Positions 6,242-62,945 of a stretch of DNA of 64,000 bases are shown here, piece after piece. Source of the stretch: Chiloscyllium plagiosum (Eukaryota); the NCBI RefSeq assembly GCF_004010195.1, contig NC_057718.1:45806322-45870321 (forward strand). Reading direction: 5' to 3'. Position 1 is the first letter of the stretch. Each line of letters starts with the position of its first letter. Below the pieces are notes generated by a model. That model did no database searches. It saw only the letters and a list, made by a program, of their open reading frames with translations, and was not told the DNA's origin. The position numbers were made by a program, and so were the translations under genes.

Positions 6242-7702
6242 TGAAATAACTCCACAAAGTGTCCTGTCTCCAAATCACCTTTATTTACACATGGAAAGTC
6301 CTTGACATTGGTCCAGCTCTCTCAGAACCAGCTCTCTGACACTCCTATTTATATCTGTCAGCAATGGCTCCCTGATTGGACCAGATTAACAGCCCCAATC
6401 AGGGAACACACTCTTCAAGGTCCACCTGGCTGACCTCATTACAGTCATTACATCCCTTCCCAGCTGAGTCTGAGGACATAGGCTGGTTCCTTTTTCTGTA
6501 GCATTTTAGCTCCGGGTCAGGTTCCTCCACCTCTGCCTCTGTTACAGGCAGCATGTAATACACAGTAGCTTGCATCTTTTGCCTCGAGCATCTTGGAAGA
6601 AATTCATTCTCCTCTTCGGGCGGTAAAGGCATTGAGGCAGATACGTACACCATGTCCATCTTTAGATTCCGAGGCATCTTCAATGCTTGATGGAGAGGGA
6701 GAACACATGGTTTCAGTATAATCGGAAAGGCAGTCAAGGTTTTGCTCCCACACCATTTGCAATTTGCGGCCTTCATATGGTCTTCGTGCTTGTACAGGGC
6801 AGTCGCATCTACCTGAAGTTTATACATCACTGTACCTGATCTTGCATCCACCGTGCCTCTTATCCATGCAAGGCCATTCTCTTGGTTTCTACACCAAACT
6901 TCAACCCCTTAACTAACTGTCCTTGTCACTTAGCGGAGCATTCTGTTCAGAAATGGCATTCCTGATGTCATTTCATGCTCCACCCCAGGTCTGGGAAGTT
7001 TAGATTTAACCTGGTGTGGAGTCTTCTCCCCATTAGCAACACTGTTGGAGATGTCCCTGAAGTTGTGTAAGGGGTGATTCTATAATCAAATAGGAAGTGG
7101 GACTGTTTGGTATCTGGTGCCTCAGGGAAAATTGAGCTCCTAATAACTGAAAAAGCTGTGGGTCCACAAACTTTCAGGAGAATTACTCATTGCTTTCCAT
7201 CTGCCCCAATGTCATTTGCCCTGAAAAAAATAGTGCATTCTTTCCACATACTTGGCCCAGTCTTCAACAGCTGAAAATGTGTTGCTGGAAAAGCACAGCA
7301 GGTCAGGCAGCATCCAGGGAACAGGAGAATCGACGTTTCGGGCATAAGCCCTTCTCCCCAGTCTTCAACAGCAGGTTTAAACAGGTTGAGCTTTCCAAAT
7401 CATGGTATGATGCCAGAAATGTTTGCCCCAACTTAAAAATGACTGTTCTTCAGGAGTGAGCACTTCTCTCGTTGCCAATGAAATAACTTCACAGAGGCCA
7501 GTATCCTGTCATAAAGTCACTATTTATTTACACATGGAGAGGCTTTGACACTGATCCAGTTTTCTCAGGGTGAGTAGAACCTCTGACACTCCTGTTTATA
7601 TCTGTCATTCAGGGCTGTCTGATTGGACTAGGTTAGCAGCCCCAATCAAGAAACTCAAATTCTCTGAGGTCCACCTGGCTGACCTCATCACAAATCACTA
7701 CA
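6242..7702 (-). mobile_element. Gypsy LTR retrotransposon, internally deleted (LTR-PBS-gag N-terminus fused to integrase C-terminus-PPT-LTR)
   Basis: Two similar TG...CA repeats at 6242-6452 and 7479-7702. PBS-like ttggcaacgag next to 7479 and a polypurine tract at 6453-6461, both on the minus strand. Gag-like FGKLNLFKPAVEDWAKYVERMHYFF; integrase-like FLFDYRITPYTTSGTSPTVLLMGRRLHTRLNL and WIRGTVDARSGTVMYKLQV. Confidence 0.88.
7272..7356 (-). mobile_element. Penelope-derived short insertion (family B) inside Gypsy gag
   Basis: Flanked by a perfect 16-bp duplication cccagtcttcaacagc (7256-7271, 7357-7372). Nearly identical to 37216-37300; truncated within the hammerhead core. Confidence 0.85.
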
Positions 7703-12618: not shown

Positions 12619-12939
12619 GATTAGATTAGATTAGATTAGATTACAGTGTGGAAACAGGCCCTTCGGCCCAACAAGTCCACACCGACCCGCCGAAGCGAAA
12701 CCCACCCATACCCCTACATTTACCCCTTACCTAACACTATGGGCAATTTAGTATGGCCAATTCACCTGACCCTGCACATCTTTGGACTGTGGGAGGAAAC
12801 CGGAGCACCCGGAGGAAACCCACGCAGACACGGGGAGAACGTGCAAACTCCACACAGTCAGTCGCCTGAGGCGGGAATTGAACCCGGATCTCTGGCGTTG
12901 TGAGGCAGCAGTGCTAACCACTGTGCCACCGTGCCGCCC
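12619..12939 (-). mobile_element. HE1-type V-SINE, near full length, little diverged
   Basis: tRNA-like head (ggcggcacggtggcacagtggttagcactg...gggttcaattcc), V-domain tctgtgtggagtttgcacgttctccccgtgtctgcgtgggtttcctccggg, CR1-like tail with (TTAGA)n; CpGs retained. Confidence 0.93.
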
Positions 12940-14672
12940 ACAAATGTGTGGGCGGCACGGTGTGTGTGAGATAAAATAATGGAGTGGAACTGGAGACAAA
13001 GATTGGCATATTAGGATATCAATGAGGCAAAAGATTTCCATTGTCCAATATATGCTACTCTGTTCCATTTAATTGGGCATAAATTTATATTTGAATTTAT
13101 GTTCATAAGCAGAATTCCAGGTGTCAACATAATGTGGGAGTCAGTTCCATGCAAATTGTTGCTGACATTCTTTGCTGGGTTTTGAAGTAAATAAATATGT
13201 CTGAGATGCAACATTGCTATTCAAAACAATAATTCAGTGGCTTCGGTTAAATGTTAGGGCATCTTTGAGAAGACTGATAACTCATATAATGTAGGAATCT
13301 CATACAGTCATCAACTGAGCCTTCAATTTTTCTCATTATACTAACTGTGGGAGAAAGAGACAAAGTCAGAAATCATCATCTAAAGACTATTTTCAGAACA
13401 TCAAAGGTGTAGATCCTGCAAGGATATTATGTGCTAGTTGAAAGATGTAAGGTGAAAGATTTCTGTAGAGTCAAGGGGAAGAAAGAAAATGAAAGGTGGA
13501 GTTCTGACCATAGTTTTAAGAAAAACTAATTTTGTGTCAATTGTTCTGCAATATGGTTTACCAAATCATTTTCAAAGATTTGAGCTTTTTGTCGCTTAAC
13601 ATTTTGTTTTAAAATTCATTTTATTTTTCTCATTAACCTTATTTTTCATCCTTCAGCAATTTTGAATCATGTCTGTCTTGCACAGTCGTATAACATTTTT
13701 AGGTTAATTGCAAGACAAAATAAATACAATATTCTGCCTATCAGTTGCATTAAATGGCATGGAAACCTCCTTCAGCAGTCTGCTTCATATGCTTCTGGTC
13801 TCAAAGAATGCATTATAAATCCAACCTCAGACCTAACATACGTCTATTTCCTCATTTGCCTTCGTCGCAGCCAGCCCTCTACAACTTACTGACCAGAAAA
13901 TGCCACCACTTCTCGTTTGATCCCTGCTTGGATCTATCTGAAAACTATTTCATAGGAAGATATGTAGTGGAAGTTTTCCATCGTTTGAGCAGCATGGACA
14001 ATGGGAAAGAATTTGGGAAAATATGGTGGGCATGAAAAAATTAGATTCTTAATGGTAAGAAACTAAAGTCCAATGCTCCCCTTAATGTTTCAATGGATAG
14101 ATATGAATCTCAGAAATAGGTGGTGATCTCCTTATTTACATGCATTTGCATCTCTTTATTAGCTAATGTCACCTCATTTTCATGCAAATCGTGAATCACT
14201 GGCAAGAAATAGACAGTGCCAATTCCCAACTTGAAGGTCAGAGATGTTACCTGGTGAATGAAGCTCACCTGTTGCTTCTCCAGGCTTTCAAATTCACCCT
14301 ATTTACCAATATTTCACAGGATGCCCCAGGAGAAGCAACCATCTCCATCCTTTGTTCACTGAAATTGGTATTGGCAAAACAGCAACTTCACCACATTAAT
14401 ATGGCTGATATTGGACTAATTCAGAAGACACTTGAGCACTGCCTATTGCGCACACAAGGACATGCATGCATCTTCTCATACATTTTCAGAGGATGAATCT
14501 AGGCCTGTCAGCTTGCTTTCTTAATACTCACTCATTTTGGACTTATTTGACGATCACATCATCTACGCCTTGTCTTGCATTTTAGTGCAATGCCACTTCA
14601 TTCAGAACATACAGCCTCATAGCAAGTCTTCTTGCCTTGGTTAGATAGAAAATCAGGCAACTTGTGTTGGTT

Positions 14673-14807
14673 AATAGTGTGGTGCTGGAAAAGCACAGCA
14701 GGACAGGCAGCATCTGAGGAGCAGGAAAATCAATGTTTTGGGCAAAAGCCCTTCATCAGGAATCTTGACTCTAATCTCCAGCATCTGCAGTACTCACTTT
14801 CGCCTAG
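14673..14807. mobile_element. Penelope-derived short insertion (family B) with internal inversion
   Basis: 12-bp TSD cttgtgttggtt (14661-72, 14808-19). A minus-oriented segment ends at the hammerhead (cccttcatcaggaat) and is followed by the plus-oriented 3' end (ctccagcatctgcagtactcacttt). Confidence 0.82.
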
Positions 14808-15545
14808 CTTGTGTTGGTTGCCAAGACTGAACAGTCAAGGGGGTATTCACATTGCTATACAGAAACATGTTATGTCAATATCATACTTCAGCATGTGCCA
14901 GCCACTTCTGTGGAAAGCATATTGCATGAGTTTCAACCAAATGGTCACGTCTGAAAGTCTAAAGTATTGGAATGCAATTGAGTTGTTGAAAGAAGGGATT
15001 TTCTTCTTATGACTTTGTCATGAGGTGGACACAGATGAAGATATTCCACTTACACTTTCTTAGCTAATGCTTTTATTTTATTTGGTTTCATCATTGTCAA
15101 TGATGCGTGCCAAGTATTGGCAATATTATTTCTAAAGTGGAGTGTTCTTTGGACCAATTGTATTAAGAGTTCACTGATAGTTTCAGATGATGTTTCTGCC
15201 AAAATTTGCTGGAAGTTAAGTTCTGAAGATTTTTTCATAGCCTAAGAAAATATAAACAATTCTTTCAGCCCTTGAAATTGGTCGTTTTTACTGTGTTTGT
15301 AATGTGAACTTTTTTTTCCTATTCATTGATAGGATGTCAGCTTTGATGGCGAATGAGAATTTATTGGACAGCCCCGGTTGCCCTTGAAAAAGTGGTAGTG
15401 AGCTGTCTTCTTGAACCACTGCAGTCCATTTGGCGTAGGTGCACCTACAATGCTGATGGGGAGGAAATTCCAAGATATTGACCCAGAAACAATAAATAAA
15501 TGAATATATTTCCAAGTGAAAATGGTGAGTGGCTTGGATGGGATC

Positions 15546-15723
15546 AGTCCTTCCTCCCTACCTTTTATCTTAGCCTGCTTGGCACACCCTCCTCATTCCT
15601 GAAGAAGGGCTTATGCCCGAAAAAAGATTCTCCTGTTCCTTTGATGCTGCCTGACCTGCTGCGCTTTTCCAGCAACACATTTTTAAGCTTCGATCTCCGG
15701 CATCTGCAGTCCTCACTTTCTCC
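15546..15723 (+). mobile_element. Penelope-derived insertion (family B)
   Basis: 7-bp TSD tgggatc (15539-45, 15724-30); core ctgaaga-agggcttatgccc-gaaa at 15599-15622. Confidence 0.82.
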
Positions 15724-15860
15724 TGGGATCTTTCAGATGCTGTATTCCTTTGTATTGACTGCCCTTTTCCTTCTTGATGATAATGATCATGAATTTGGAA
15801 GGGGCTATCCAAAGAAATTTCTGCAGGTGCATCTTGCAGATAGTATACACTGCTGCTATT

Positions 15861-16669
15861 AGAGTCATAGAGTCATAGAGATGTACAACATGCAAATGGA
15901 CCCTTTGGTCCAACCTGCCCATGCCAACCAGATATCCCAACCCCATCTAGTCCCACCTGCCAGCACCCAGCCTATATCCCTCCAAACCCTCCCAATTCAT
16001 ATAACCATCCAGATGCCTGTTAAATGTTGCAATTGTACTAACCTCCACCACTTCCTCTGGCAGCTCATTCCATACACGCTCTGTGTGAAAAAGTTGCCCC
16101 TTAGGTCTCTTTTATATCTTTCCCGTCTCACCAGAAACTTATGCCCTATAGTTCTGGACGCCCCCACCCCAGGGAAAAGACTTGGTCTATTTATCCTATC
16201 CACGCCCCTCATGACTTTGTAAACCTCTATAAGGTCACCCCTCAGCCTCCGATGCTCCAAGGAAAACAGCCCCAGCTTGTTCAGCCTCTCCCTATAGCAC
16301 AAATCCTCCAAACTTGGCAACATCCTTGTAAATCTTTTCTGAACCCTTTCAAATAGGAAGCAGACCAGAATTGCACACAACATTCCAACAGTGGCCTAAC
16401 CAATGTCCTGTACAGCCGCAACATGACCTCCCAACTCCTATACTCAATATTCTCACCAATAAAGAAAAGCATACCAAACGCCATCTTCATTATCATATCT
16501 ACCTGCAACTCCACTTTCAAGGAGTATGAACCTGCACTCCAAGGTCTCTTTGTTCAGCAACACTCCCTAGGAGCTTACCGTTAAGTGTATAAGTCCTGCT
16601 AAGATTTGCTTTCCCAAAATGCAGCACCTCGCATTTATCTGAATTAAACACCATCTCTGCCACTTCTCA
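15861..16669 (-). mobile_element. CR1 (HER1-like) LINE 3' part
   Basis: Frames ERVQKRFTRMLP...LRGDLIEVYKVMRGVDR; tail (gactctat)n; 6-bp TSD gctatt (15855-60, 16670-75). Confidence 0.93.
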
Positions 16670-19885: not shown

Positions 19886-20108
19886 TCACAAAGAAAAACA
19901 GAAATTGCTGGAAAAACTCAGCATGTCTGGCAGCATCTATGGAGAAAAATCAGAGTTAATGTTTCAGATCAAGTGACCTTTCCTCAGATCTTTCACTAAG
20001 CCTGAAATGTTAACTCTTATTCCTTTCCACAGATGCTGCCAGACCTGCTGAACTTTTTCAGCAATTTCTGTTTTCATTTCTGATTTACAGTATCCGCCAT
20101 TCTTTAAG
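19886..20108. mobile_element. Palindromic Penelope-derived element (family C)
   Basis: Arms aaaacagaaattgctg...gagttaatgtttcag / ctgaaatgttaactc...cagcaatttctgtttt; near-perfect 13-bp TSD tgaac(c/a)ttctttg (19873-85, 20109-21). Confidence 0.82.
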
Positions 20109-22097: not shown

Positions 22098-22208
22098 AGT
22101 TTGGCAGCATCTGTGAAAGTTCTGATGAAGGGTCAGTAGACTTGGAATGTTAACTCTGCTTTCTCTCCATGGATACTGCCAGACCCGCTGGGTTTCTCCA
22201 GAAATGTC
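22098..22208 (+). mobile_element. Penelope-derived short element (family C)
   Basis: agtt-ctgatga-agggtcagtagactt-ggaa-tgtt-aact core followed by the family C body. Confidence 0.72.
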
Positions 22209-23054
22209 TTAATAGAAAGGTTGCTGTGCTGTTACAGCTCTTTCAGCCTTGAATGCTGAGCAGATTGGTTTGCAACATGTATTTTAAAACTGACACTCTT
22301 AAAGAGGTAGCTTACTTCTTTGTGAGATGTTTCTTCTTTCTTCTTTTTGGATGAATGTGGATTCTTTGTACTTATGATGCTTTATTTACACTTGAAAACA
22401 GGAATCTGCGTTGCTGTGCGCCATGTTGTAAAAGATGCCATCAGCTGGCACCTGGTTCAGTTAGGATCTTCTTTGGATAGATTCATTTCCACCAGCCCTT
22501 CTTGCAATACTGTTCTATGGGGCTTACTAGTATGAAATGGTGAAGGATTAACCACTTCAAAGTCTTCTGCAGAAACATAAAAAATAGGAGCAGGAATAGG
22601 CCATTCAGCCCTTTGAGCCTGCTCCACCTACTTGAGTTTATTGCAAGGTAGTAAGTTAACAGATTAAATTAGTTTAAGATCACTTAACTGCCCTAACACA
22701 AGGTTAGAGACATTGTTATCTGATAAGCGAAAATAATTAGATCCATGCTATATGGCTGTAGTTGACGAAAAACTAACAGCAAATTTGAACTGACGAACTC
22801 CTTCCAGAAACAGTCTTTCATATACCAGTGGGCAGACTTATTCTAAAGTTTCTGAGATAACCTTTTCAAGCCAACTGTCTTATACAACAAACAGAATAGC
22901 TAATTTGTACACAGTAATGTCCCACAAACAGCATTAAAAAAAATGAATTGATAATCAGAAATGGGTACTGCTAAGAACACAGAAAAAAAAGAATTGTGTA
23001 ATAAATTGTTTTTCCATTAACTTCGAGTTTCATTTATTGCAATAATTTAGCACA

Positions 23055-23900: not shown

Positions 23901-24781
23901 CCATGAGCACCAGCCATATTCATCCCACTTCCACAGATATTAGCAGCTGACATATGCCAGCCTATAAGAAATCTCATGACATATTACTGATCTAGTTACA
24001 GGATGCTTCTGGACTTCGATGCTGCACTTTGGAGTGCAGCAGCAACACTCATTGTCGTGCTGCAGCAAGGGCACTTTTTACACAGGGATGTACAACTAGC
24101 TCATGGACAAGACCAGACTGCAGTTTGCTTGGTGTCTTTGTACTCATGTACTTTGAATATACTTGGATGCTCACAGCATCCTTGTCTTGCATTGTCTTGT
24201 CTTTCTGAGCCTTGCCCCTCAGCCAGAGATAACAGAATCAAACTACTGTCGTATCACCGCTTACCACAGACAGCCAGGAAGTTTGTCATGGTTTTCAGCA
24301 ATCCTCAGCTAATTCAAGGGACACAGCCTTCAGTTAGGGGATTCTGGCACGGTAAGTCAAGAGTAGCCTTTGATAACAGACCAAGGGCTTGTGTATGTTC
24401 AGTCAGCTGCTTGAGATGTCAGAGTCAGGATCTCCTCCTCATAAGGGGTAAGGAGCTGAATGTCAGGTAACCCATTTTCCATCTTAACTCTCTCTTTCCT
24501 ATTGTGGGCTGCTTTCTTCTGAGTATAAGAGTGAGATAAGTATTAAAGGATATGAAAATGGTTAAGTGGGAAAGAGAACTGACTTAGTGGTGTTATGTAT
24601 AAGGCTGATGAAAACAGATGGGGAAGATGTTATAGCAGTATGGAGAAAATTTGCTTTGGTGGGAGATGAAGACAGAAGCAGCAACTGAGGTAGAATGTGA
24701 GATATTGGAGAGAATTGGTGGAGTGGAGTCTTTCTTTCTATAGTGCTGTGCATTCCTGTAGCTGGGAGAGAGTGCACTGGA

Positions 24782-25098
24782 GCAGCGCGGTGGCTCAGTG
24801 GTTCGCATTGTTGCCTCGCAGCACCAGGGACCCAGGCGATTCCATCCTCAGGCGGCTGTCTGTGCGGAGTCTGTACATTCTCCTTGCATCTGTGTGGGTT
24901 TCCTCCGGATGCTGCAGTTTCCTCCCACAGTCCAAAGATGTGCAGATCTGGTGAATTGGCAATGCTAAATTGCCCTTAGTGTTAGGTGCATTAATCAGAG
25001 GAGGGTGGGTGTGGGTGGGTTGCTCTTCGGAGGGTCGATGTGGACTTGTTGGGCTGAAGGGCCTGTTTCCACACTGTGGGGAATCTAATCTAATCTAA
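24782..25098 (+). mobile_element. HE1-type V-SINE
   Basis: tRNA-like head, V-domain and tail ending (aatct)n; same family as 12619-12939. Confidence 0.92.
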
Positions 25099-25415: not shown

Positions 25416-27349
25416 AAAGAGTCATAGAGACGTCCAGCTCGGAAACAGACCTTTCGGTCCAACTCAACCATTCTGACCAATCTAGTCCCACCTGCCAATA
25501 CCTGGCCCATATCCCTCCAAACCCTTCCTATTCATATACCCGTCCAGATGTCTCTTAAATGTTGCAATTGTACTAGACTCCACCACTTCCTCTGGCAGCT
25601 CATTCCATACATGTACCACCTTCTGCATGAAAACATTGTCCCTTAGCTCTCTTTTATATCTTTCCCCTCTCACTCTAAACCTCTGCCCTCTCATTCTGGA
25701 CTTCCCCACCCCAGGGAAAAGACTTTGTCCATTTATCCTATCCATGCCCCTCATGATTTTATAAATCTCCATAAGGTTACCCAGTCTCCGAAGCTCCAGG
25801 AAAAACACCCCAGCCTATTCAACCTCTCCCTATAGCTCAAATCCTCCAACCTGGAGACATCCTTGTAAATCTTTTCTGAAACCTTTCAAGTTCACAACAT
25901 CTTTCCAATAGGAAGGAGACCAGGATTGTACTCAATATTCCAACAGTGGCCTAACCAATGTCCTGTACAGCCACAACATGACCTCCCAACTCCTGTACTC
26001 AATACTCTGACCAATAAAGGAAAGGCAAACGCCTTCTTCACTATCCTAGCTACCTGTGACTCCACTTTCAAGGAGCTATAAACCTGCACTCCAAGGTCTC
26101 TTTGTTCAGCAACACTCCCTCGGACCTTAGCATTAAGTGTATAAGTCCTAATAAGATATGCTTTCCCAAAATGCAGCACCTCACATTTATCTGAATTAAA
26201 CTCCATCTGCCACTTCTCAGCCCATTGGCCCACCTGATCAAGATCCCGTTGTAATCTGAGGTAAACTTCTTTGCTGTCCACTACACCTCCAATTTTGGTG
26301 TCATCTGCAAACTTACTAACTATATCTCTTATGCTCACATCCAAATCATTTATATAACTGATAAAAAGTAGAGAACCCACCACCGATCCTTGTGGCACTC
26401 CACTGGTCATAACCGTCCAGTCTGAAAACAACCCTCCACCACCACCCTCTGTCTTCTACCTTTCAGCCAGTTCTGTATCCAAATGGCGGGTTCTCCCTGT
26501 ATTCCATGAGATCTAACATTGCTAACCAGTCTCCCATGGGGAACCTTGTCAAATGCCTTACTCAAGTCCATTTAGATCACATCTACCTTTCTGCCCTCAT
26601 CAATCTTCTTTGTTACTTCTTCAAAACACTTAATCAAGTTTGTGAGACATGATTTCCCATTCACAAAGCCATGTTGACTATCCCGAATCAGTCCTTGCCT
26701 TTCCAAATACATGTCCATCCGGTCCCTCAGGATTCCCTCCAACAAGTTGCCCATCACTGACATCAGGTTCACTGGTCTATAGTTCCCTGGTTTGTCCTTA
26801 CCATCTTTCTTCAACACCGGCACCACATTAGCTAACCTCCAGTCTTCCTGCATCTCACCTGTGACTGTCAATGATATAAATATCTCAGCAAGGGGCCCAG
26901 CGATCACTTCCTTAGCTTCCCACAGAGTTCTCGGATACACCTGATCAGGTCCTGGGGATTTATCCAATTTTATGCGTTTCAATGTATTCAGTACTTCCTC
27001 CTCTGTAATATAGACATTTTTCAAGATGTCACCATTTATTTCCCTACATTCTATATCTTCCATGTCCTTTTCCACATTAAATACTGATGCAAAATATTCG
27101 TTTAGTATCTCCACCATCTCCTGCAGCTCCACACAAAGGCTGCCTTGCTAATCTTCGAGGGGCCCTATTCTCTCCCTAGTTACCCTTTTGTCCTTAATGT
27201 ATTTGTAAAAACCTTTTGGATTCTCCTTAACTCTACTTGCCAAAGCTATCTCATCTCCCCTTTTGTCCTCCTGATTTCTCTCTTAAGTATACTCTTACTG
27301 CCTTTATACTCTTCTAAGGATTCACTCGATCTATGTCTGTACTTGCTCT
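25416..27349 (-). mobile_element. CR1 (HER1-like) LINE, about 1.9 kb, disrupted ORF2 RT domain
   Basis: Frames KSPGPDQVYPR, PGNYRPVNL, QHGF, GVPQGSVVG and KFADDTKIGG; 7-bp flanking repeat ttgggtc (25409-15, 27350-56). Confidence 0.95.
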
Positions 27350-35200: not shown

Positions 35201-37215
35201 ATTCTGGTAGCAGTCATGATGCCTTTATTGCGTACTAATCCACAGTGCATACAATACCTGAAAGAGACCATTGGATGAATAATTTTTAGAATATCTATGA
35301 CTGGTTGTGATAAAATCTTAAACTATGATGTCACCTTCATCATCGTAAATATGTGTTGTAATTGGCAATGCTCGTGAACAATACCTGAAAGCTACGTTTC
35401 CTAGATAGAGTGGCAGTTCCCAGTTTAGGTTTGGGCTATGTTTGATGGGTTCCATATGCACTGGAGTGATTCACAAGAAAAAGCACACCACCAATATCTG
35501 AAAGGTAATCTGGAATGAGTAATATGTCCTGGTTTTCCTCGTGACACCAATAGTTGTGAATGAATTATAAAAAATGCATGTATTGTTTGCCATAATATTG
35601 AGAAGTTTATGTATTAAGTAGCCAGGTTGAACAATTTATTTTAATAAAGGCAATGCAACATTGATTTATCAATTTTAGTCCTTTTTAAATATTAATGTTC
35701 TGTTGTCATCATTTTTCAAGTCGTAAATGAAACTCTTAACACCTCTAAAACAGGCACTGCCTCTAATCAGTAGGGTTTCCTAATTTTGTGCCAAACACTT
35801 CTTCTAAGTGATTCTTAACTTCCTATATTGTCCAAGTTCAACCAACACTTAAACACTGTTTCCCTATGTGAGAGAATTTATTGGCATCTTTTACATTGTT
35901 GAACAGGGCAAAAGAAAACTTATCCACCACAATCTTCTTAACTGTTAGTATAACTAATGTTGTTGCTCTTATTAGCTTTTCCTTTTTAATTTTTTCAAAG
36001 CTCTATGAATATGCTATAACACATTACTTTACTTCCCTGTATACTTTGTTAAACTTAATTCATTTGGATCTCTTACTCAAATTCCTTTCTTATTAAGACT
36101 TCAAAATAGTGCTAATCACATCTATAGGAATGTTTTCCTCCGTAGAAATATTTATCTCTTTTCTACATTCAGAAAGGAGTTCTTTCTTGCTCTTCTTTTC
36201 AGAGGCATACGTTGTCACTTGTTAGAAACATTTTGCCCTACCCTATTCCTGTTCTTTCCCCTCATAATTCACTCAATGGTCCACTTTCTTCCTCCTGCAC
36301 TCCCTACTGTTTATTTCGGCTCTAACATGATGTGAGTTTGCATGAACTTGCGTAACTGTGGCATGGAACCAGGACTAAGTGGACTGCTGAGTGGAGACAC
36401 ATCTTAGCAGAGGAGACAAAAGTCTTGAGAGACTAACATAAGTTCAGACTAGTGTGCATTACTTAAAGATAGTCTCCAGCTCTTATTTGCATGCTGACAA
36501 GAGCTACTTGAACTTAATGGAAGCCATTGTAAAAGTCAATTTGCACAGGGAAAAGTGACACAACAGGGCTGACAGCAGAGTCCAGGGTTGGAAATAAATA
36601 TAGGGTGGAATCTTAAAGGGGCCTGAGCAACATGGGTTATCACAAGATGCGTGACAAAATTGAACAAGAAATTCAGCGAAGCTGATCTAGACATTGAGAG
36701 CATCTTGTTTTGTTTTTTACACTTTTCACAAGTGGTGTGACAAGTTTCTTGTTAGGAAACAGTGAAATTCTTGCTAGACAGCGGCCATATGCTAATTAAG
36801 AGAGATTATTGCTTGTTAAAAACCTATTGATGGCTCAATTTGCTGAATTAATAGTCAACTGTCTATATCATTGAACTTGCTAAACAAGTTAGCTATCAAG
36901 GAAATTCAGTATGAAAACCAGAGCGGGTACAAGACAGATTTAGCTCACCACTTCTTCCAAATGTCCACCATGTTGCATTTGATCAAACTGCAGTTCAGGG
37001 CATGATCAATAGGCACCAGCCACATGCCTTTCCATTGTGATCACCATTTATTAAATGGTGTTGTCACAGCAACAACACCTCTATTTCTCTTGAAATGTAG
37101 TATATATGGAGATACACACAAGTAGAATTCAAATAATTAATCAAAACCTCAATAATAAGCAGCTCTCCATCAAACTTAAAACAACTTTACATAAAGCAAA
37201 CATTAATTCTATAAC

Positions 37216-37317
37216 TGAAAAATGTGTTGCTGGAAAAGCGCAGCAGGTCAGGCAGCATCCAAGGAGCAGGAGAATCGACGTTTCGGGCATAAGCCCTTCT
37301 TCAGGAATCAGCTCATT
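37216..37317 (-). mobile_element. Penelope-derived short insertion (family B), very little decayed
   Basis: Perfect 14-bp TSD attaattctataac (37202-15, 37318-31); CpGs intact. Confidence 0.88.
37272..37308 (-). ncRNA. Minimal type I hammerhead ribozyme motif
   Basis: Minus strand reads auuc-CUGAAGA-a-GGGC uuau GCCC-GAAA-CGUC-gauuc: intact core boxes, 4-bp stem II, palindromic ACGU stem III, GUC cleavage triplet. Stem I is weak. Confidence 0.72.
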
Positions 37318-37497
37318 ATTAATTCTATAACCACCATATTATTTCAATTGGTATAAAATAGTAGGCATAAATTAACAAAAGGTTTTTTAAAGTAATGGGG
37401 ACACACTTCTCCATATAAAAATCCATCATCCCAAATGCACTTCCACAGATTCATGAAGTCATAGTTAATGAGTTTTTATTGTACATACACAAAATTG

Positions 37498-37652
37498 GGA
37501 AGTTACACAACACCAGGTTTTAAGCCACTTCACCTGACGAAGGAACAGCACCCTGAAAGCTTGTGATTTCAAATAAACCTGTTGGACTAAAACCTGGTGT
37601 CATGTGATTTCTGATTTTGTCCACCCTAGTACAAAACCAGCACCTCCACATT
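37498..37652 (+). mobile_element. Penelope-derived insertion (family A) with short 5' inversion
   Basis: Perfect 13-bp TSD atacacaaaattg (37485-97, 37653-65); core cac-ctgacga-...-gaaa-gctt-gtg at 37531-37565. Confidence 0.85.
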
Positions 37653-39787
37653 ATACACAAAATTGAAAGACCTCTGTCTGATACCTGCTTCTAGGGTCCA
37701 ACAGTCAGAACTCCCAAATCCAGCAGAAGATCTCTGGACTCTGAAAAAAGGCACCCTGACAAAAGATCTTGGATCTCTTGCCAGCTTACCCCAACACCTG
37801 GCTCTTGGCCCGCCTACTTCTGGACCTCGCCCCCACCCAGTCCATGACCCCAGCCCTTGTTCCTCAGATTTTTGCTCCTGGCCCTAGCACCAAATCACAA
37901 TGCCCTAACCCCACCCCCTCACTTATGAGACCATTAGGAGCAAGTGTAGGAGATAATCAGCCTGTGATTGGAAAAAAAGCTTCTCAACATTTCCATCCAA
38001 TCTATTTATGAGGATACCTTTGGTTGCCCCTATGTCCAAATTTCACAGGTGATTGAGACTTTGGAAGCATGCCAGATCCACTGGCCCTCCCCATTTATTT
38101 GGAGCATTGATAGTGTCAGTGACCTTCATTATACAACAGTGGACAGTGAATTGGGAAGTGCTGGAGATTTGTTTGCTTCAACTTGAAAGCAGCCAGATTC
38201 AAAATTGTTCATGGCCACAATAAACTTGACTGCTACAGGTAAATCTGTGCTGACTATCATCATAACAATTACTCTACATATTTCTGGCGTACTCTCCCTT
38301 CTACATTGAAAACCATGGGGTCTGTGGTGACTTTCATCAGAACACTCTTAGTGCATACACCATTTTCAACCTTAAACAGTACTTGTAACACTGAAAATAT
38401 AGGCATGACCAAATTTTGCTACTTCTTATTGATTTCCAAACATCACTCTAGATTATGCATTAAAAGAATAAAAATGAATGAGTTGGACTAATATCGGTGA
38501 AGTGCATTCCTCTGTTATCCCACACTATCAACTGTGCAATCGCTGTTTAATGGAAGTACAAAACAGATCTAATTTGTTTAGATAATTTACTTAAATCAAC
38601 TTAATTAAATTGAATTACAATTAACTACATTTTTGAAAACAAGAGGTATGCTTAAATTATTTTTAATGTATTCATACACACATTCCCTGATATAATGTGT
38701 CGAACAGTCAGGACTGACTCCACTGAGTCATTGGCTTTTAAAGCAGAAACAGTGGTTGAAATAAGAATGAAGAGATGTGACTGCATTTTACTTCATATAA
38801 TTAAATAACCCAGATTAAATGGACTAAATGTACTCATCTAAAATCTAATTTTTGAGATAAAGCAGATAAATGTGACCATGTGATATCTAGTTTTTATTGC
38901 AGTGTGATTATGTGATTGGAAATACTTTCACTTTGCTGATTATTACCATAAATCTGATGTATTTCTCGACCTCTCAGTACAATTGTCACAGTTATGACCT
39001 TTTGTGTAAAATTGCAGTAATAAATGAAATGCCTCTATGAAGATTCCACCAAACCTGACACTCTGGGGAAAGAATTACTCTGGTTATTATGTGCAGTGAC
39101 ATTGTAAATGTATTTTAAAAATAGCATTTACAATATATTTCCATGCAAAAGACATAATTCTGTGTAAAGTACATTTACATATAAAGCAACAGATATTCTG
39201 AATCAAAATGGTCAATGAAGTTTCTAGTTCTTATGGATTAATATTGCTCATATTTATCTGAAGTTGGAATAATTTTATGTGACATAAGTTTGAAGTATTT
39301 TTCTTGTTTTTAATAATCCAACAAAATTAAATTGTGTTGTTTACTTGGGAATTATGAGTATGTCGCTGATGATCCCTTTGTTTGGGATTCATCAGGAGGA
39401 AGAAATCAAAAGTGCGTTTTAGGAACCAGACAAGCGTACCTGAATATGACTTGAGAAACCTACATAATAGATATTATAATATCAGTGGGAGGCCATCACA
39501 GAAAATGCACACACTAGAAATCAAGCCTGGAAACTATTTTCAAAACTGAAATAACTCTGTCGGTAATCATGAAAGTAACTACCCTTTACACCACTCTGTC
39601 CCAGTATGAAACGGCAACAGGTGTTCTGCCAAAGTTCTACCTAGTTCTAGTCCTGATCACTGCTTTGGTCCAAATACGAACAAGTCAGAGTTGAACCCTA
39701 AGAATGAGGCAAGAGCAATTGCTTTTGACATCAAAGTGAAATTTGACCTTGTCTGACATCAGTGTTAGAAATTCAGGTTACTTCAAG

Positions 39788-40550
39788 TGGTCCATGTGGG
39801 ATAAGTTGAATGTTTGGTTAGGTCTGAGAAGGAGATGTGGTTGTAGTAGCAGGTCTGCTTCCGAACATGGTTGAAGAGTTTCAGGGCAGAGGAGATGACC
39901 TGGGGGAGTGGGGACAGGGCACGGTGCAGTGAGAGAGAGACTCACTGAGATCCTTGTGGAGGAAGGAGGAGAACTTCTTCAGGGTGGCTGTCCATGGAAG
40001 AGGCTTTGCAGTAAAGTTACAGCAACTAGGAGAAAGTGAGGACTGCAGATGCTGGAGATCAGAGTCAAGCAGTGTGTCATTCCTGATGAAGGGTTTATGC
40101 CCAAAATGTCGACTATCCTGCTTCTCGGATGCTGCCAGGCCTGCTGTGCTTTTCCAGTGCCACACTTTTCGACTCTGATCTCCAGCATCTGCAGTCCTCA
40201 GTTTTTACTATTTGCTGTAACCTTACTGCAAAGCCTCTTCCAAGAATGCCCACCTTGAAGAAGCTCTCCTCTCTCTACAAGGATCTCAGTGAGTCTTTCT
40301 CTCACTGCATCCCCCCCCAGGTCATTTCCTCTGCCCTGAACCTCTTCAACCACATCCTGAAGCAGACCTGCTACTACAGCCAGACTAGACTACATTCTGA
40401 CTCTAGACTACATTCAGACAACATTCCTGATGAAGGACTATACCCAAAATGTTGATTCTCCTGCTCCTCGAATGCTGCTTGACCTACTGTGTTTTTCTAG
40501 TACCACACTTTGAGACTCTGATATCCAGCATCTGCAGTCCTCACTTTCTC
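39788..40550. mobile_element. Complex Penelope insertion (family B) with partial-tandem and inverted terminal repeats
   Basis: Perfect 14-bp TSD caggttacttcaag (39774-87, 40551-64). Inverted arms at about 39843-40069 and 40169-40377. Two hammerhead-like ctgatga cores (40083, 40427). Inserted at the end of a LINE RT fragment (about 39560-39773). Confidence 0.85.
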
Positions 40551-40693
40551 CAGGTTACTTCAAGGGGCAATCAGAAATAGAGTTAACATTTCAAGTCCAA
40601 TATAACCTCTTTTCAGATGTTTTCCTCCTTTTTCACATCACTATATGATATCTATAACAACAACAATGCACATTTATAGAGAACTTATATTTA

Positions 40694-46717: not shown

Positions 46718-46907
46718 TGAACAAAATAAAGAACTGCAGATGCTGGAGATCTGAAACAAGAACAGATATTGTTGGCGAAACTCAGGAGGTCTGGCAGCAT
46801 CTGGTTCTGCTGAAATGTCACCAGACATGAAATGTTAACTCTGCTTTCTTCCCACAGATGCTGCCAGACCTGCTGAGTTTTACCAGCAATTTCTGTTTTT
46901 GTTTCAG
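46718..46907. mobile_element. Palindromic Penelope-derived element (family C)
   Basis: Inverted arms around gtt-ctgctga-a-atgtc acca gacat-gaaa-tgtt-aac (46804-46839). Confidence 0.8.
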
Positions 46908-53442: not shown

Positions 53443-54652
53443 TGATGTGGAGGGATTGGTGTTGGATTGGGGTGGACAAAGTTAAAAATCATACAACACC
53501 AGATTACAGTCCAACAGGTTTATTTGGAAGCACTAACTTTTGAAGCACTATTCCTTCTTCAGGTGGTTGTGAAGCAGGACCATAGGACACAGAATTTATT
53601 GCAAAAGATTACAGTGTCATGGAAACAAAATGATATTTAACAAACCTTGTTGTTTGTTAAGTATATCATTAACAACAAAGATTGTTGTTAAGTCTTTCAT
53701 CTTTTAGAATGGGTTATAGGTTTCGGTTCATTAATATATTAATTCCAGAACTTCTTTTAAGTCACATTCTCAAGATAACTTAAGGTTTTATAAAAAAAAG
53801 GTGACATCTCAGCTCAGACAATGCATTAAAAGATTGAGTCAGAGTCTGTGTGTATCCCAATCTTAAGTCAGACTGGTTCTATTTCCAAAGAGGAATTTGC
53901 AAAATATTGTATGGATTGACTGTCTGCATTGACTACCTCCAGGTTGTACATTTTTAAAGAATGTATCTGCAAATATAATTCTGCACATACAAATTCACCC
54001 CATAGTGAATGTGCTTGTGCAGGGGAGAGGGAGAGAGAGAGAGAGAGAGTATGCGTGTGAGTGTGTGCATGTGAGTGTAAGTGCACATGAGAGTGTGTGT
54101 TTCCGTGTGTGCAAGCTTGGTAAAGTGTGCGCGAGTGTGCTGGAGTCTAAGCCTGTGAGAGGGTGCATGTGTGGGTTTGATTGTGGGGAGTGTATGTTTG
54201 TGTATATGTATGAGAGAGAGCTTGGGTATGAGAGAGGGTCTACGTGAATGTGAGTATGTAAGAGTGTGTGTGTGTGTGTATATGGGTTTGCGTGTGTGTG
54301 CACGAGAGTGTATAGTGTAGTGTGACATGAACCCAAGGTCCCAGTTGAGGCCATCTTTATGGTTGCTGAACTTGGCTATCAGCCGCTACTCGGCCAGTTT
54401 ACATTGTTGCCTGTCCTAAAGTCCACCTTGGAGGATGGTCACCCGAAGATTTGAGGCTAAATGTCCCTGACTGCTGAAGTTTTCCCCGACTGGGAGGGAA
54501 CATCCCTGTTTGGTGATTGTTGTGCGGTGTCCATTCATCTATTGTCGTAGCTTCTGCTTGGTCTCGCTAATGTACCGATCCTCAGGGCAACCTTGCCTGC
54601 AGCGTATGAGATAGACAACGTTGACCGAGTCACATGAGTACCTGCTGCATAC
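53443..54652 (-). mobile_element. Penelope-like retroelement 3' part: GIY-YIG endonuclease remnant, (CA)n-rich UTR and family A terminal repeat
   Basis: 54652 down to about 54317 translates YSCDSVNVVYLIRCRQGCPEDRYISETKQKLRQ*MNGHR...PVGENF...GH...AE*RLIAKF...GLN, with 3 stops. The terminal repeat matches 944-1459; degenerate hammerhead core at about 53530-53566. Confidence 0.92.
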
Positions 54653-56659: not shown

Positions 56660-57620
56660 TTTGCCAGGAGGTGGGGAGGCTGCAAAAGGATTTCGACAGG
56701 TGAGGAGAGTGTGCAAAGAAGTGGCTGATGGAGTACAATGTGGGAAAGTGTGAGATCATGCACTTTAGTAAGAAGAATAGAAGCATGGACTATTTTCTAA
56801 AGGGGGAGAACATTCAGAAGTCTGAAGTGCAAAGAGACTTGGGAGTTCTAGTCCAGGATTCTCTCAAGATAATCTTACAGGTTGAGTCAATAGTTAGGAA
56901 AGCAAATGTAATGTTAGCATTTATTTTGAGAGGACTTGAATATAAAAGCAGGGATGTACTTCTGAGGCTTTATAAAGTTCTGGTCAGACCACATTTAGAG
57001 TATTGTGCATAGAAAGGCTTATGCTTGAATCGTCAACTCTCCTGCTCCTCAGATGCTACCTGAGCTACTGTGCTTTTCCAGCACCACACTCTTCGACCAC
57101 CATATCTCAGGAAGGATGTATTCCTCCTGGAACAGGTTCAGAGGAGGTTCACAAGAATGGTCCCAGGAATGAAAAATTTAACATATGAGGAACCTTTGAG
57201 GACCCTGGGACTATACACAATGGAGTTTAGGAGGATGAGAGGTGATCTAATTGAAACTTATAGAATACTGAATGGCCTGGACAGAGTAGATGTTGTGAAG
57301 TTGTTTCCATTGTTAGAAGAGACAAGGTCCAGAGGGCATAGCATTAGAATAAAGATAAAGACCTTTTAGAGTGGAGATAAGGAGAAACCTCTTCAGCCAG
57401 AGAACGATAAATCTGTGGACTTCACTGCCACAGAAGGCCAGGTCATTGAATATATTTAAGATGGAGATAAATAGGTTCTTGTTTGTCATGGAGATCAAGG
57501 TTTACGGGGAGAAAGCTGGAGAATGGGGTTGAGAAACTTATCAGCCATGCTTGTATGGTGGAGCAGACTCGATGGGCTGAATGGCCTAATTTCTGCTCCT
57601 ATGCCTCATGGTCTTATGGT
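56660..57620 (+). mobile_element. CR1 LINE 3' part (another subfamily)
   Basis: Frames MEYNVGKCEIMHF...LYKVLVRPHLEYC and EQVQRRFTRMVPGM...RGDLIETYRIL. Confidence 0.92.
57010..57097 (+). mobile_element. Penelope-derived fragment (family B) inserted in CR1
   Basis: agaaaggcttatgcttgaatcgtcaactctcctgctcctcagatgct...ttttccagcaccacact interrupts the CR1 frame between LEYC and PYLRKD. Confidence 0.75.
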
Positions 57621-62373: not shown

Positions 62374-62945
62374 CGCTAAACAAAGAAAAACACAAAAACT
62401 GCAAATGTTGGAAATCAGAAACGAAAGCAGAATTTGCCAGAAAAACACAGCAGATCTGGTAGCATCTGTAGAGAGGAAGCAAAGTTTGTTTTTAAGAGTA
62501 GATTCCCTACAATATGGAAAAAGGCCCTTTGGGCCAACAAGCCCATACCAACCCTCTGAAGAATTAACCCACCCATTCACGTACCCTACATGACTAATGC
62601 ACCTAACAGTATGGGCAATTTAGCATGGCCAATCAACCTGACCTGCATATCTTTGGATTGTGGGAGGAAACCAGAGCAAACCCACACAGACACAGGGAGA
62701 ATGTGCAAATGCCCTACAGACAGTTGCCCAAGGCAAGAATTGAACCTTGGCCCCTGGCACTGTGAGGCAACATTGCTAACCACTGAGCCACCATGCCGGG
62801 TCCAGTGGGTCCAGTGACTGGTCTTCAGAATTGAGGAAGACCCTTCTGAAGAAGGGTCAGTAGATGTGAAACAAACTCTGCTTTCTCTCCATTGATGCTG
62901 TCAGAACTGCTGAGTTTTTCCAGTAATTTCTGTTTTTTGTTACAT
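62374..62945. mobile_element. Palindromic Penelope-derived element (family C), split by an HE1 SINE
   Basis: 8-bp TSD actaggac (62366-73, 62946-53); core ctgaaga-agggtcagtagatgt-gaaa at about 62847-62871. Confidence 0.78.
62495..62797 (-). mobile_element. HE1-type V-SINE
   Basis: Same head, V-domain and tail as 12619-12939, more diverged. Confidence 0.9.

Follow-up and report, generated by a model that had tools for sequence, protein, structure and literature searches.

A 64-kb window of the Chiloscyllium plagiosum genome (64,000 nucleotides of contig NC_057718.1, numbered here from its first base) holds on its minus strand, at 37272–37308, a sequence with the layout of a minimal type I hammerhead ribozyme, and the question it raises is whether this is a true ribozyme motif, how it came to lie there, and whether it cleaves anything in its present place. 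Read along the minus strand, the 5′ strand of stem I (37308–37305) is followed by the CUGAAGA box (37304–37298), an extra A (37297), a stem II of GGGC/GCCC (37296–37293/37288–37285) closed by a 4-nt loop, the GAAA box (37284–37281), CGUC (37280–37277) and the 3′ strand of stem I (37276–37273), which sets the predicted cut between 37277 and 37276. The first-pass annotation had described this copy, the index copy hereafter, as an intact member of one of three repeat families (family B), and we could bear this out, as all core bases are present, stem II is paired at 4/4 positions and stem I at 3/4, and the palindrome is ACGU.

One might suspect that the boxes are a chance resemblance in one or more repeat families, given that an Rfam search returned no match to any hammerhead family up to E 10, that most copies of the motif are broken and that family B carries a fixed mismatch in stem I. 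However, a strict descriptor of the motif found two matches in the window (37304 on the minus strand and 37534 on the plus strand) and none in any of 20 order-3 Markov simulations. With one core mismatch allowed there were four matches against 0.1 in the simulations, and the loosest descriptor (one core mismatch, looser stems) gave nine against a simulation mean of 0.75. Three families, moreover, keep the boxes while their stems change on both sides. Pairing points the same way even in a MAFFT alignment that sets family A one column off and so understates it: the paired cells of the named structure exceeded those of 500/500 shuffles and of all slid controls, while the pair types showed no excess over shuffles (297/500). 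We regard chance as an extremely improbable explanation.

In total, 15 motif-bearing copies were found in the window, namely the 11 loci cited by the first-pass annotation, all of which exist, and four further copies with C3 at 1027 (−), 19987 (−), about 57007 (+) and 62846 (+). The index copy is the one among the 15 in which core, stem II, palindrome and stem I are all present together. The core is unchanged in three (37304, 37534 and 19987), of which 37534 has only 2/5 stem II pairs in the family register and 19987 a broken palindrome, and G12>A is found in 5/15. Within family B, the index motif is carried by an insertion of 102 bp (37216–37317, minus strand) between 14-bp direct repeats at 37202–37215 and 37318–37331, likely a target-site duplication. 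The copy at 7272–7356 (−) is cut off within the motif, lacks the CUGA box and has a 16-bp flanking repeat; that at 14673–14807 (−) has G12>A, an inverted 38-nt tail on its 5′ side (14767–14804) and a 12-bp flanking repeat; and that at 15529–15726 (+, left limit approximate) has upstream family sequence and a long tail and has lost the cleavage triplet. An inverted arm at 39828–40066 (−), made of the tail and the beginning of the element reading frame, lies beside a copy at 40077–40383 (+) that has G12>A and continues into the first 45 codons of the element protein (from 40246). A further G12>A copy follows on the same strand at 40422–40554 (+), 343–344 nt behind it, so that within 40077–40554 a short stretch of the frame lies between two motif copies of the same orientation; there is no full element in the window. 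A decayed family B copy without its 5′ half (57012–57096, +) sits within a LINE-like fragment.

Family A comprises an insertion at 37498–37652 (+) with a short inverted arm, the motif (C3 37534, cut 37562/37563, weak stem II) and a tail, flanked by a 13-bp repeat (37485–37497/37653–37665), a head-to-head inverted pair at 937–1466 (C3 1027 − and 1341 +, core changes in both), and a G12>A copy with upstream family sequence at 53459–53656 (−). Family C is represented by an inverted pair at 19890–20083 (motif on the minus strand, C3 19987, and a partial plus-strand arm), a copy with A13>G and a short inverted arm at 22105–22209 (+), a second inverted pair at 46730–46904 (arm on the minus strand, motif on the plus strand, C3 46807, A6>C), and a third at 62398–62937, divided by another repeat, whose plus-strand motif (C3 62846) has a deletion. 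The dividing repeat is SINE-like (about 62500–62810) and occurs also near 12750–13070 and 24700–24970. The three families had been said to differ in everything but the motif layout, which fails for B and C, as these have in common a downstream stretch of about 33–40 nt with 77–88% identity.

Other repeats of the window lie outside the hammerhead families. The youngest-looking inverted repeat has 182-nt arms (33143–33324/34174–34355), 95% complementary, that enclose 849 nt of unrelated sequence. LINE-like reverse transcriptase (RT) fragments, which we take to be of CR1 type, occupy 25485–27147 (−), 56704–57369 (+) and 15997–16395 (−); the first contains PF00078 matches at 25895–26455 and 26575–27147, and the second houses the decayed family B copy. 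A Pfam scan of the 100 longest of the 142 window frames found no host exon and no element RT or GIY-YIG domain, the two LINE-like RT pieces being its sole finds of this kind.

For a comparison between families, 11 of the 15 copies were placed in a hand-made hammerhead register, the other four being omitted for deletions or a missing 5′ half; this register was used instead of the MAFFT alignment, and in it 81/99 stem cells are paired over nine pairs. Compensatory changes between families are seen in stem I at 2.1/1.1 (CG, UA), 2.2/1.2 (UA, AU) and 2.3/1.3 (GC, CG), in stem II at 10.3/11.3 (GC, AU) and also at 10.4/11.4, and in the palindrome at 15.2/16.2 (CG, GC), which is ACGU in families B and C (decayed at the CpG, 5/7 scored) and AGCU in family A. 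The claim that the stems covary thus stands as to pairing kept through two-sided changes between families, but not for family B at 2.3/1.3, where stem I is mismatched in 4/4 copies scored. The extra A after A9 is present in 11/11 copies and G10.1 in 9/11. All three families have the same majority letter at 10 of the 11 core positions, compared with 2/21 other motif positions and 3/20 flank positions; between families, then, the CUGANGA and GAAA boxes are better kept than the flanks, a comparison that the first-pass annotation had named beforehand as one on which its reading depended. The sole core position without a common majority letter is G12, where family B and A copies show CpG decay. Taken together, boxes, stems, palindrome, extra A and between-family covariation support the annotated identity of the motif as a minimal type I hammerhead of the kind found in Penelope-like elements (PLEs).

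Within families the picture is different. The core departs from the textbook letter in 10/121 cells, five of these changes being G12>A, and the flank from its own majority in 16/220. A core that is common across families, yet decays like the flank within them, fits selection in active elements and not at these loci. The motif was thus retained as the families grew apart, but individual copies in the genome decay in the manner of neutral DNA.

The anatomy of the insertions indicates how they arose. The motif carriers are insertions of 85–300 bp with flanking duplications of 12–16 bp and inverted arms. Flanking repeats of this length were found in four of the 15 insertions tested (14 bp for the index insertion, 16 bp for 7272, 12 bp for 14673 and 13 bp for 37498), against three of 1500 random pairs reaching 12 bp; the other 11 have no clear flanking repeat, with a best exact match of 5–8 bp. 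Counted from C3, family B copies end on the 3′ side at about +82 to +88 (four copies, three of them scored and the fourth end read off separately) or at +125 to +127 (two copies). The two ends lie about 38 nt apart, a distance that corresponds to the Penelope ‘tail’, and family A ends likewise fall at about +90 or at +117 to +125. Inverted arms are present at 937–1466, 19890–20083, 39828–40383, 46730–46904, 62398–62937 and 37492–37522, inverted family B pieces begin at +87 in two copies, and opposite-strand joints are also present in DNA contigs. 5′ truncation, inverted 5′ copies and a tail of 30–40 bp are described as PLE hallmarks in the text excerpted from PMC8557442; truncation and inverted 5′ copies are both seen in the window, and the optional tail in families B and A.

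Inverted tail pieces that start at +87 and are joined to a copy starting at stem I occur at 14673–14807, 37216–37317 and 40029–40083, and give a clean record of priming at two sites; for the index copy this assignment is weak, its piece measuring about 6 nt. We also considered whether the 5′ ends of the insertions are produced by ribozyme cleavage and rejected this for most copies, as no arm in the window begins at the cut site. In a small number of DNA contigs the beginning of stem I (37307–37309) is connected to the opposite strand just beyond the cut site (37268–37275), and one joint at 37276 has a depth of 430. Such joints, too few to weigh, may reflect occasional insertion of cut RNA or else microhomology.

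The link to PLEs at the protein level comes from family B. Its reading frame (40246–40380, and 39982–39828 in the inverted arm) matches the N-termini of gene models in the sharks Hemiscyllium, Chiloscyllium and Rhincodon at 67–80% identity; for instance, the 45 codons at 40246–40380 agree at 67% with residues 1–45 of shark protein P0006. A word-based protein search with the window frame found no match. An exhaustive one gave seven, of which three lie at the N-terminus and the other four were dropped for low identity spread over several stretches. A word-based search with residues 1–165 of P0006 found no full-length relative over 812 aa. A profile of the N-terminal matches, however, finds whale-shark models P0009–P0011, of which P0009 has a relative of the element's N-terminal region (41% over 114 aa), an RT match to PF00078 that falls below the Pfam cut-off (E 8.8e-5, score 22.7 against 29.6) and, at its C-terminal end, a region closest in Atlas to clusters with GIY-YIG (0.91), a lead that comes without an E-value. 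This succession of N-terminal region, RT and GIY-YIG-like end is the order of a PLE, with the reservation that gene models could be chimeric. An Atlas search with the N-terminal domain gave generic helical look-alikes only, a PDB search with P0009 gave nothing significant, and scans of metagenomes found neither the motif nor the protein. The protein link holds for family B only, family C being tied to it by shared sequence and family A by anatomy. The same N-terminal domain is contained in P0002, P0006 and P0008 (mucin-2-like, uncharacterized and prostatic acid phosphatase-like models, respectively), which are likely misannotated or exonised pieces of the element.

The insertions could also be looked at as a family in its own right, that is, units of 90–140 bp, SINE- or retrozyme-like and non-autonomous, whose transcripts would begin near the start of stem I and which PLE proteins would copy in trans, instead of truncated full-length elements. 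The 5′ starts lend themselves to this: relative to C3, they fall from −7 to about +5 in six of seven family B copies and within about 10 nt in 11/15 copies overall, although copies were picked for holding the motif, which biases these counts. Many loose ends lie behind 37308 and are mostly unlike one another (agreement 0.35–0.44), and a preprint (10.64898/2026.07.22.740005), in the part consulted, treats animal retrozymes as non-autonomous PLE derivatives and lists one chondrichthyan. Nevertheless, 4/15 copies extend upstream by a further 50 nt or more and two enter the protein frame, the window has no tandem arrays, and no joints in RNA are among those listed. We consider a non-autonomous family unlikely, though worth keeping in mind.

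What we hold to be very probable is that the motif is a minimal type I hammerhead within 5′-truncated terminal fragments derived from PLEs, and that the intact copy is a young, inert passenger and not a local device. In the mechanism that we propose, the GIY-YIG nuclease of the element would nick both strands about 12–16 bp apart, and its RT would start either about 86 or about 125 nt 3′ of C3 and usually halt no more than about 10 nt from the 5′ edge of the ribozyme. If both nicks prime, the result would be a head-to-head junction of the products or an inverted tail. The template would be uncut RNA: no copy in the window stops at the cut site, in agreement with what the consulted part of PMC11167929 reports. 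By analogy with known elements, the ribozyme would act, if at all, in the RNA–protein complex of the element, as a dimer formed through the 4-nt palindrome and with help from protein, and it is within this complex that selection on the core and on the covarying stems would operate. After insertion, copies would decay neutrally, mostly at CpG. The fragments would in this way be a record of the insertion reaction, with duplications of 12–16 bp, two start sites, and stops at the 5′ edge of the ribozyme and none at its cut site.

Abundance and age have a bearing on how the intact copy is to be seen. Contigs aligning to 37050–37800 at 80% likeness numbered 105,024 and 110,217 in two DNA-type runs, and the summed depth came to about 2e7 on the insertion of family B and 3.7e6 on that of family A, compared with 10–60 on unique flanks; such alignment totals are not a copy number. 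With the 15 relics in 64 kb, they suggest on the order of 1e5 copies or more, as extrapolated from one window. The very high abundance that had been predicted for the motif is thus supported, with more than 100,000 aligning contigs per DNA run. For comparison, excerpts of published surveys give about 4,000 minimal motifs in coelacanth and 9,000 in Xenopus (PMC4209133), and 126,247 type I motifs in axolotl (PMC7229834). By its density, this genome may rank among the richest known for the minimal hammerhead, which would offer unusual statistical power on PLE insertion. Under a second organism label, the corresponding site also contains the index insertion, in pieces aligning to 37050–37239 and 37282–37574 with four and five differences, respectively, and the index copy is 96% identical over 82 nt to the 7340 copy. 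From these identities, it is a member of a young subfamily, apparently fixed before the split from the second organism label, and it would be intact because it is young.

Does the intact copy, then, cut host transcripts that run through it, in cis or in trans with another copy, as the first-pass annotation had suggested? It has every core base, RNA of the family is plentiful on both strands (depth 850–1,500 and 690–1,080 over family B), and the copy at 7272–7356 offers the same palindrome and cut triplet on the same strand. The suggestion nevertheless found no support. The neutral rate of decay described above (10/121 core changes against 16/220 in the flank) and the young subfamily of the copy both speak against it, as does folding with nearest-neighbour energies, which ignore the hammerhead core: the monomer is predicted to form stems I and II without stem III, stem I has a probability of 0.22 when the whole index insert is folded, and the dimer fold, at −17.5 kcal/mol against −24.1 for an alternative pairing, is not the predicted minimum. 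In the published work consulted in part, minimal motifs did not cleave as monomers and did so weakly as dimers (PMC4209133), 8/9 Xenopus dimers gave no product (10.64898/2026.07.22.740005), and an element of the anole had no reads at its cut site and needed its protein (PMC11167929); dimer cleavage was the subject of work by Lunse et al., as cited in the consulted part of a review (PMC6765202). As to transcripts, no position of the stretch, the two cut sites included, showed a pile-up of RNA starts or ends in 2 in 100 of a poly(A) single-cell run, which is weak evidence, this library being ill-suited to cleavage ends, and the depth of family A RNA is not lower past its cut site. We judge cleavage of host transcripts by intact copies to be quite improbable; the index copy is probably inert. 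A second palindrome, GUCGAC, spans the cut site in some family B copies (window 40103–40114), and the index copy is itself partly self-complementary around the cut site; pairings of this sort could compete with the active dimer.

The RNA data, all from the same 2 in 100 of the run, revealed a property of family A that is distinct from cleavage. A total of 5,034 RNA reads align to the stretch, and 0.99 of them continue into unlike sequence, which indicates that they stem from other copies; the unique flanks of the index stretch are at zero depth in this sample. Family A RNA is one-sided, with first mates on the minus strand at 1,192 versus 154 at 37544–37569. The element at 37572–37612 (+) consists of AATAAA (37572–37577), poly(A) addition sites behind 37589 and 37592, and a GU-rich stretch. 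Runs of A continue 786 reads behind 37589 and 258 behind 37592 (1,044 reads), that is, 12–15 nt past AATAAA, 27 nt past the family A cut site and just before the GU-rich stretch. AATAAA is present in 3/4 family A copies, and the poly(A) reads come from other copies, as position 37552 differs in 768/796 and there are several sequence types. We considered internal priming by oligo-dT and found it unlikely, since the family has no A-run at 37589–37592, the A-runs set in 12–15 nt downstream of AATAAA, and the six loose ends listed for each of the other three runs include none of this type. Family A pieces thus act as poly(A) sites. The simplest reading would be that this is the element's own 3′-end signal, now used by read-through transcripts as well; in the open-access literature, PMC2377424 included, we found no earlier report of a PLE poly(A) signal beside a hammerhead.

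On either side of the family A cut site depth is steady (37562, 1,454 reads; 37566, 1,491 reads), so the poly(A)-tailed RNAs seen are uncut, with the proviso that cut products, being 27 nt plus a tail, might be lost and read depth is thus no measure of cleavage. Whether element or host transcripts end at these sites, and whether the ribozyme ever acts there, matters for understanding the function of PLE hammerheads. One could go further and imagine family A as a mass-dispersed cassette of two parts, a working polyadenylation signal and, 27 nt upstream of the tail site, a minimal hammerhead that cleaves conditionally. Were such a cassette to end a host transcript, cleavage through an AGCU-paired second copy or through the element protein would remove the tail and destroy the RNA; a retroelement would then have supplied thousands of shark transcripts with a latent switch for self-deadenylation. 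We give this very little credence.

Finally, the shark motifs can be set beside three known systems. Minimal hammerheads in the pseudo-LTRs of metazoan PLEs were described by Cervera and De la Peña (2014; PMC4209133), so the kind of ribozyme has been known since 2014 and the shark element is a further member that adds little in kind; we found no earlier report of such motifs in sharks in the open-access literature. In the part of that work consulted here, the motifs are, like ours, of type I and without a real stem III, with a palindromic 15.2/16.2, an extra base after A9 and G10.1–C11.1; they too come in several families per genome, mostly as dispersed single motifs with a tie to truncated PLEs, and in opposite-strand pairs 100–700 bp apart. 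Ours differ in their carpet shark host, which is not among the hosts named there, in their density (15 relics and one or two near-intact motifs per 64 kb, pointing far above the coelacanth and Xenopus figures), in a stem II of 4–5 bp and in the fixed stem I mismatch of family B.

The second system is the Poseidon element PAc of the green anole (Frangieh et al., 2024; PMC11167929), in which, according to the part of the source consulted, both strands are cut and extended, two RT start sites bound the tail and uncut RNA is the template in vitro. Like the shark fragments, PAc has its hammerhead immediately ahead of the protein frame or at its beginning, two RT start sites bounding a tail downstream of the ribozyme, and both strands cut and extended. 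The PAc start codon, however, lies within stem II, whereas the likely start of family B is about 160 nt 3′ of C3. The third, the non-LTR retrozymes (PMC7229834; 10.64898/2026.07.22.740005, both consulted in part), are likewise non-coding repeats with type I hammerheads related to PLE ends, with target duplications of more than 4 bp and up to the 126,247 motifs of axolotl. They are tandem repeats of 150–450 bp, mostly with canonical motifs, and are expressed as circles. Such tandem repeats were not seen in the window, where copies are single or inverted and, save for the pair at 343–344 nt, lie kilobases apart; unlike the retrozymes, the shark copies are dispersed pieces of 85–300 bp, single or inverted, that carry minimal motifs.
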